The notes under the pieces: model-generated
Database searches by the model: none
What the model was told of the DNA's origin: nothing
Seen by the model: the letters and a program-made list of their open reading frames with translations, nothing else
Made by a program: the position numbers and the translations under genes
Part shown: positions 57,602 through 59,508 of the stretch, one piece after another
How the letters are laid out: each line of letters starts with the position of its first letter
Position numbering within the stretch: the first letter of the stretch is position 1
DNA from: Escherichia coli
GTDB taxonomy: Bacteria; Pseudomonadota; Gammaproteobacteria; Enterobacterales; Enterobacteriaceae
Direction: 5' to 3' (one strand)
NCBI RefSeq assembly: GCF_036507355.1
Contig: NZ_AP027877.1
Length of the DNA stretch: 64,000 nt

Positions 57602-57865
57602 TCAGGCGCGGATTTGTTGTGATGTGGTTGTGCTCTGGCAGATTGCAACGTGTGCGACGTCCACCAGTTTATTTAACTGACTAAACAGTAAGTCGACCGA
57701 CCGTGGGCTGGCAACGGTCAATTCGATATTTATATTTTGTGCATCGCTGGCGGCGGCCATATTCATTGAGCAGACGTGGAAACCACGATGACGCACCACG
57801 CGTAAAACACGTTCTAAGGTTTCTGGATTGAAGCGAGCCGATACATTGACCTGATGTTGCATCAT
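57602..57865 (-). CDS. ilvM: acetolactate synthase II small subunit IlvM
   Basis: 87-aa [26 protein letters not shown]... Confidence 0.9.
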
Positions 57866-59508
57866 GATAATTTCTCCAACATTTCTGAATTACTGGCACC
57901 AGGCGGCACCAGCGGCCAGACGTTCTCAAGTTCGTCGATTGAGACATGAAGCAGGTATGGCCCATCACTGTTCAGCATGGTGTCGAGTGCCGCTTCAACC
58001 TGGTCTTTACGGGTGATGTGTTGGCCAGGGATGCCGAAGGCGCTGGCTAACATGAGGAAATCGGGGTTATCGGTAAGGGTGGTTTCGCTGTATCGTTCCT
58101 GGAAAAACAGTTGCTGCCATTGTCGAACCATCCCTAACCGTTGGTTATCGAGTAAGACGATTTTCAACGGTAACTGCTTGCGTTTTACGGTGCCCAGCTC
58201 TTGTACATTCATCATGAAAGAGCCGTCACCGGAGATACAGACGATGGTATCGTTCGGCCTCGCGACTTGCGCGCCAACCGCCGCCGGTAAACCGAAACCC
58301 ATGGTGCCTAAGCCGCTGGAGGTGATGAAATTTTCCGGGCGAGTGTGGGCGATGTGCTGGGCAGCCCACATCTGGTGCTGCCCCACATCAGTGGTCACGA
58401 CGCAATCCGCAGGTTTACGATCCGACAGTTGCTTTAACAACAACGGCGCGTAGATAGCGTCACCGGGATGATCGTAACGCCAGGCATGTTCATCACGCAG
58501 CTGTGCGCAGTATTGCTGCCAGTCATTGATATTTAATGGCTGCTGTAATGCTGGTAACAGAGCATTTAAATCACCCTGTAATGCCACATGTACCTGACGC
58601 AGCTTGTTCATTTCTGCCGGATCGATATCCATATGGATAACGCTGGCGAGTGGCGCGAAAGTGTTCAGTTTGCCGGTCACCCGGTCATCAAAACGTGCGC
58701 CCACAGCGATCAGCAAGTCGCACTCCTGCACCGCGAAGTTCGCCGCTTTGGTGCCATGCATTCCCAGCATTCCCAGATAGTACGGATAATCTGCTTCAAC
58801 TGCGCCCAGCCCTTTCAGCGTGCAGGTGGCAGGCATTTTTGTGGTAGAGAGAAATTCTCGTAAAGCAGGAACTGCCTGCGCCATACCCACGCCACCGCCA
58901 ACGTACAGCATCGGTTTTTGCGCTTTTGCCAGCATCTGGCGCGCTTGCTCGACTTCGGCATGGGGGAAAGTCACTTCGTTTTCAACGGTGGTGAACCACG
59001 GTTCCAGGTCGCCGCTGGCTAACTGGATATCTTTTGGGATATCGACCAGAACCGGACCAGGACGACCTGAGCTGGCAACGTCGAATGCTTCAGCCATGAT
59101 GCGCGGCAACTCTTCCAGCGACTGCACCAGGAAGCTGTGCTTAGTACAGGCTAACGACAATCCCAGGACATCCACTTCCTGAAATGCGTCAGTGCCGATA
59201 AACGGTGCGGACACTTGACCGGTGATGGCAACAACAGGGATAGAATCTAACAGTGCGTCCGCAAGCCCGGTTATCAGGTTGGTTGCGCCCGGACCAGACG
59301 TGGCGATACATACGCCAGTTTTGCCGGTAGCACGGGCATAACCGATAGCCGCCATTGCCGCGCCCTGTTCATGTCGGCACAGCAAGTGCTCCACGCCGCC
59401 GTCATACAATGCATCGTAAACCGGCATAATTGCGCCACCCGGATAACCGAAAACGGTGTTCACACCCTGTGCCCGCAACGCATGTACCACCCACTGTGCG
59501 CCATTCAT
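57862..59508 (-). CDS. ilvG: acetolactate synthase II large subunit IlvG, intact
   Basis: single uninterrupted 548-aa ORF; K-12 carries a frameshift here, so this is a non-K-12 background. Confidence 0.9.

Follow-up and report, generated by a model that had tools for sequence, protein, structure and literature searches.

An intact ilvG reading frame without the K-12 frameshift in the ilv operon of a non-K-12 Escherichia coli

Organization of the ilv operon

The sequence analyzed here, referred to as the window, is a stretch of 64,000 nucleotides of Escherichia coli DNA that contains a complete ilvLXGMEDA operon on its minus strand. The coordinates of the operon features are collected in Table 1. 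The gene order ilvL-ilvX-ilvG-ilvM-ilvE-ilvD-ilvA is collinear with the annotated operons of K-12 and of strain Res13-Sevr-PER07-33, so that ilvG occupies its expected place in the attenuator-controlled operon. The stop codon of ilvG (TGA) and the start codon of ilvM (ATG) overlap as ATGA, and the amino acid sequence of IlvM is identical to that of K-12; the cognate small subunit is thus encoded directly next to the large one.

Table 1. Features of the ilv operon in the window (positions are those of the window; the end coordinate of ilvG includes the stop codon)
Feature	Description	Position	Strand	Basis
ilv promoter region	region upstream of ilvL	59747..59870	minus	intergenic comparison with K-12 and natural loci
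ilvL	32-aa leader peptide of the ilvLXGMEDA attenuator	59648..59746	minus	ORF; NF007744, 80.3 bits (cutoff 59)
Attenuator terminator	hairpin and U-run, GACCCCCGCACCGAAAGGUCCGGGGGUUUUUUUU	59592..59627	minus	sequence reading and folding
ilvX	16-aa peptide ORF just upstream of ilvG	59511..59561	minus	translation identical to K-12 IlvX
ilvG	acetolactate (acetohydroxy-acid) synthase II catalytic subunit	57862..59508	minus	548 codons, ATG start, intact
K-12 frameshift site	ATAT here, single AT in K-12	58529..58532	minus	alignment
ilvM	AHAS II small subunit, 87 aa	57602..57865	minus	ORF; NF008362, 133.9 bits (cutoff 68)
ilvE	branched-chain amino-acid aminotransferase	56653..57582	minus	ORF; collinear with annotated K-12 and H1 operons
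ilvD	dihydroxy-acid dehydratase	54738..56588	minus	616-aa ORF; collinear with annotated K-12 and H1 operons
ilvA	threonine deaminase, last gene of the operon	53191..54735	minus	514-aa ORF; collinear with annotated operons

At the distal end of the operon, ilvA and ilvY are convergent and their stop codons overlap in the sequence TTAA (53191-53194). The intergenic segment of about 59 bp that separates these genes in K-12 and in locus H1, and that holds an apparent REP-type palindrome (GCCTGATAGCGCTTCGCTTATCAGGC), is absent here, and IlvY has 296 amino acids instead of 297. This overlapping arrangement is common to the loci L007, L008, L011 and L015.

The ilvG gene and the K-12 frameshift site

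The first-pass annotation had described ilvG as one uninterrupted open reading frame of 548 amino acids. The list of open reading frames bears this out: the frame is unbroken, and both the coordinates and the length given earlier are exact, while the strand, which had been left unstated, is minus. The translated product scores 1069.1 bits, against a cutoff of 738, with NF006524, the NCBIfam equivalog for "acetolactate synthase 2 catalytic subunit", and the match is full-length, residues 1-547 covering profile positions 1-547 of 548. Since a frame of 548 codons is matched end to end by a curated equivalog, ilvG is a real gene rather than a chance open reading frame. In fact, exactly the same protein is present in public collections on many E. 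coli contigs under the same product name. The closest solved structures are also AHAS catalytic subunits (e.g. 6lpi, E = 9e-162). The large subunit of E. coli AHAS isozyme I (IlvB; 6lpi) and the plant and yeast enzymes belong to the same ThDP/FAD-dependent family and are similar to IlvG from end to end (E = 9e-162 to 1e-145), although they are paralogues, or orthologues from other isozymes. The product of ilvG is therefore a member of the acetolactate synthase 2 catalytic subunit family.

In K-12, a frameshift in ilvG and the resulting valine sensitivity are established (PMC8605374, citing Lawther et al. 1981; PMC3446290). To examine the site, the gene was aligned pairwise with the ilvG pseudogene of MG1655 (b4488; NC_000913.3, 3950560-3952204), an orthologous locus flanked by the same genes (ilvL, ilvX, ilvM and ilvEDA). 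The gene is 1647 nt long in the window and 1645 nt long in MG1655, and the two sequences differ by 53 substitutions and one gap of 2 nt, giving 96.7% identity. The gap is the only indel: the dinucleotide AT at ilvG nt 977-978 (window 58531-58532) is present here and absent in K-12, the alignment across the site reading …CCATTAAATATCAATGACTGG… in the window and …CCGTTAA--ATCAATGACTGG… in K-12. As a consequence, the K-12 translation runs …PLNQ and stops at a TGA at codon 328, whereas that of the window continues as …PLNINDW… to codon 548. The outcome that would have contradicted the first-pass annotation, namely the same frameshift as in K-12, was thus looked for by alignment and did not occur, and the lesion that it ascribed to K-12 was itself reproduced.

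Because both bases lie within an ATAT run (nt 975-978 of the gene), the K-12 lesion seems to have arisen by loss of a single AT unit. [quoted passage not shown]

Leader region and expression of the operon

An intact gene could still be poorly expressed, either because of an altered leader or because of promoter differences, and the phenotype would then be weaker than expected. One ground for such a view is found in ilvL, where codon 20 is changed from ATC to ACC (window 59688, minus strand), replacing isoleucine with threonine (I20T) in the leader peptide MTALLRVISLVVISVVVIITPPCGAALGRGKA. The exact 60-mer carrying this change was found in none of the 5426 complete E. coli genomes, and it is also absent from the closest relative identified (L015, see below). 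The substitution removes one of the five regulatory isoleucine codons, the last before Pro-Pro, and it is the only unusual feature of the ilv operon. In addition, the intergenic region between yifB and ilvL contains 11 substitutions relative to K-12 over 352 nt.

Several observations speak against poor expression. With respect to the promoter, six natural E. coli loci besides this one (L002, L004, L007, L011, L013 and L015) share the same 125 nt ahead of ilvL, so that the window has the promoter allele common in nature, and of the loci compared it is K-12 that stands apart. With respect to the attenuator, the stretch between the end of ilvL and the start of ilvG matches K-12 at every position, the terminator and antiterminator segments are unchanged, and the leader region as a whole (59528-59817) matches Rfam RF02744 with 152 bits. 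The predicted leader fold is slightly weaker with I20T (-67.6 versus -70.0 kcal/mol) and one hairpin is reshaped, but the terminator, whose sequence is that of K-12, is untouched, and both leader alleles are predicted to form it as their terminal hairpin. A simple terminator scan of the minus strand missed the attenuator terminator, because its stem has an internal mismatch.

Moreover, some enterobacteria that are more distantly related, with ilvG genes of 82-86% identity, naturally have exactly this I20T leader DNA. This is compatible with a working attenuator, and the variant is therefore probably tolerated. The loss of an isoleucine codon would be expected only to blunt derepression on isoleucine starvation, not to silence the operon. 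Taken on their sequences, the promoter, leader and attenuator look normal, and we regard poor expression as very unlikely. A more limited effect, in which I20T would measurably shift the attenuation response of ilvGMEDA to isoleucine limitation in this strain, could follow from the lost codon and the reshaped hairpin, but it too seems rather unlikely.

Conservation of the IlvG protein

Alternatively, the reading frame may be intact and the enzyme nevertheless inactive, or sensitive to valine, as a result of missense changes, in which case AHAS II would confer no valine resistance. IlvG differs from the K-12 protein repaired by re-insertion of AT at nine positions (C146S, A221S, A222T, H287L, A306V, H333Y, S342A, V422I and H494P), and the nucleotide allele is rare: a copy at least 99% identical exists in only one of the 5426 complete E. 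coli genomes (NZ_CP062811.1, with one mismatch).

However, several of the nine differences recur in other natural alleles, and many E. coli assemblies, independent of one another, encode the identical protein. Residues 427-456 contain the ThDP motif GDG…N, with 427 as the start of the motif. All ten of the individual residues that we checked are also conserved (E47, F109, Q110, M250, R276, V375, D428, N455, M460 and W464); these are sites known from the AHAS II mutagenesis literature, and Glu47 is the catalytic one. The codon differences from repaired K-12 ilvG comprise 42 synonymous and 9 non-synonymous changes, a ratio that indicates purifying selection on the gene, and the NF006524 score lies far above the cutoff. 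An inactive or valine-sensitive enzyme thus appears highly improbable, and what is favored is a functional IlvG.

Lineage of the window

The first-pass annotation took the intact frame to place the sequence outside K-12. The placement is correct, although an intact ilvG frame alone is insufficient proof of it, since K-12 can revert to valine resistance through 1-bp deletions close to the premature stop that bring the frame back, an event selected repeatedly in evolution experiments with K-12 lineages (PMC8605374). What places the window outside K-12 is the ancestral AT itself together with the 53 further differences in ilvG and the divergence of the surrounding sequence, which is 97.2% identical to MG1655 over 8.9 kb from maoP to ilvA; ilvY is 95.2% identical, and the segment from rep to thrP about 99.1%. 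Furthermore, the window departs from K-12 in gene content at five places.

Of the sequences found, the nearest belongs to a draft E. coli genome (GCA_905398585.1, L015) and differs by 6 SNPs, all of them transitions, in 11,334 bases (99.95% identity). None of the complete RefSeq E. coli genomes exceeds 98.8% identity over the 24 kb from 40000 to 64000 of the window. An ilvG match was obtained in 5425 of the 5426 complete genomes and, apart from the single genome mentioned above, none is more than 98.1% identical to this nucleotide allele. Although an intact frame by itself would be compatible with a spontaneous valine-resistant K-12 revertant or an engineered ilvG+ repair, the substitutions in ilvG besides AT, the divergence of the 8.9 kb, the five gene-content differences and a nearest relative that is an unrelated draft genome reduce the probability of such a K-12 derivative to almost nothing, and it was rejected. 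As judged from its sequence, the window belongs to a natural E. coli lineage, and K-12 is excluded.

A Shigella origin was also considered, prompted by the best complete-genome identity of at most 98.8% over the 24 kb and by a stop codon in yifB (see below). It was set aside, since database entries for the exact proteins are assigned to E. coli (BED245xx) and the 99.95% identical draft assembly is also E. coli.

The divergence from K-12 is not uniform. The ilv region from ilvC to ilvG (50336-59508) is 95.2-97.5% identical to K-12, versus 99.1% in the adjacent rep-to-thrP segment. The ilvG identities over the 5425 genomes fall into deep bands, with 1 genome at 99% or more, 4659 at 95-99% and 765 at 90-95%. 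The closest relatives also change between neighboring segments, yifB resembling L004 and ilvG resembling H1 and L015. Together, these patterns suggest a recombination mosaic.

Other features of the window

Upstream of the operon, yifB (plus strand, 60099-61619) encodes a Mg-chelatase-like AAA ATPase of the competence protein ComM family. Here an amber codon replaces W461 (TGG>TAG, 61479-61481), shortening the product from 506 to 460 amino acids, while L015 keeps TGG at this codon. At least 14 contigs encode this shortened protein (BED24523.1). Because these include backgrounds with 26 synonymous differences in yifB, the amber stop is either recurrent or recombining.

Several segments differ from K-12 elsewhere in the window. 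Between corA and yigF (2447-4016), there are additional genes for a YPO3983-family protein (TIGR03034, 298 bits) and a DUF943 membrane protein, and between uvrD and yigE (6102-7112) there is an extra SAM-hydrolase-like open reading frame, whose score of 132.5 bits is below the 350-bit cutoff of the best-matching model. An insertion of about 2.6 kb between cyaY and lptM (13100-15666) contains two overlapping open reading frames, 12913-14421 (502 aa) and 14418-15743 (441 aa), which show only borderline Pfam matches to DKNYY (about 25 bits); this two-gene insertion (12913-15743) has no NCBIfam match, and PADLOC and Pfam gave no defence-system match for it. The aslB gene is interrupted by an insertion of about 1.07 kb (26823-27891) that carries an IS30-family transposase (26882-27883, plus strand; NF033563, 308.9 bits). 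Finally, the interval between ppiC and rep (50281-50336) lacks the yifN pseudogene that K-12 has there, with about 55 bp in place of about 830 bp; the yifN counterpart in strain Res13-Sevr-PER07-33 is a PemK/MazF-family toxin gene.

Intact ilvG in natural E. coli and valine resistance

The frequency of the broken allele was estimated by searching for the exact K-12 60-mer spanning the deletion, and a count restricted to this one junction sequence gives 340 of the 5426 complete E. coli genomes. Among the 40 genomes listed with this 60-mer, 39 are laboratory or in-vitro strains by name or description and one has no source; examples are MG1655, C600, DH5alpha, J53 and NEB 5-alpha. The intact gene is the ordinary state, found in nearly all natural E. 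coli, and the broken copy is peculiar to K-12.

This agrees with what is known of other strains. The natural strains B (REL606), W and Crooks have an intact ilvG of 548 codons in the same operon position, followed by ilvM, and the gene of the window differs from theirs only as one allele from another. In strain B the intact gene "mediates valine resistance" (PMC3446290), and for W, B and Crooks, where ilvG is intact, valine tolerance has been predicted (PMC3032704). Isozymes I and III are inhibited by valine and isozyme II is not (established knowledge, and the context of PMC3446290).

We therefore consider it very probable that ilvG in the window is the ancestral allele, is functional and belongs to a natural E. 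coli outside K-12, and that in its normal place in the operon it encodes the large subunit of AHAS II and confers a valine-resistant phenotype. In this scheme, IlvG and IlvM would together form acetohydroxy-acid synthase II, the isozyme without valine feedback inhibition, so that the synthesis of acetohydroxybutyrate would continue despite valine; added valine would then not cause isoleucine starvation, and growth would be valine resistant. In addition, translation would run unbroken through ilvG into ilvM, and ilvEDA would be free of frameshift polarity, an effect described for K-12 by Parekh & Hatfield 1997 as that work is cited in PMC8605374.

The activity of the enzyme, its insensitivity to valine and the growth phenotype are predicted here from the gene and its relatives. 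Valine resistance of the strain can soundly and reasonably be inferred from the literature on B, W and Crooks, because IlvG and IlvM are intact, the residues checked are kept, and the promoter, leader and attenuator look normal. That ilvG is intact outside K-12 is correct but ordinary, textbook biology that was already known. The strain would be expected to grow in minimal medium containing valine, without frameshift polarity on ilvEDA. Beyond annotation the finding has little import, and its practical use is that intact ilvG serves as a marker for strain typing and quality control.
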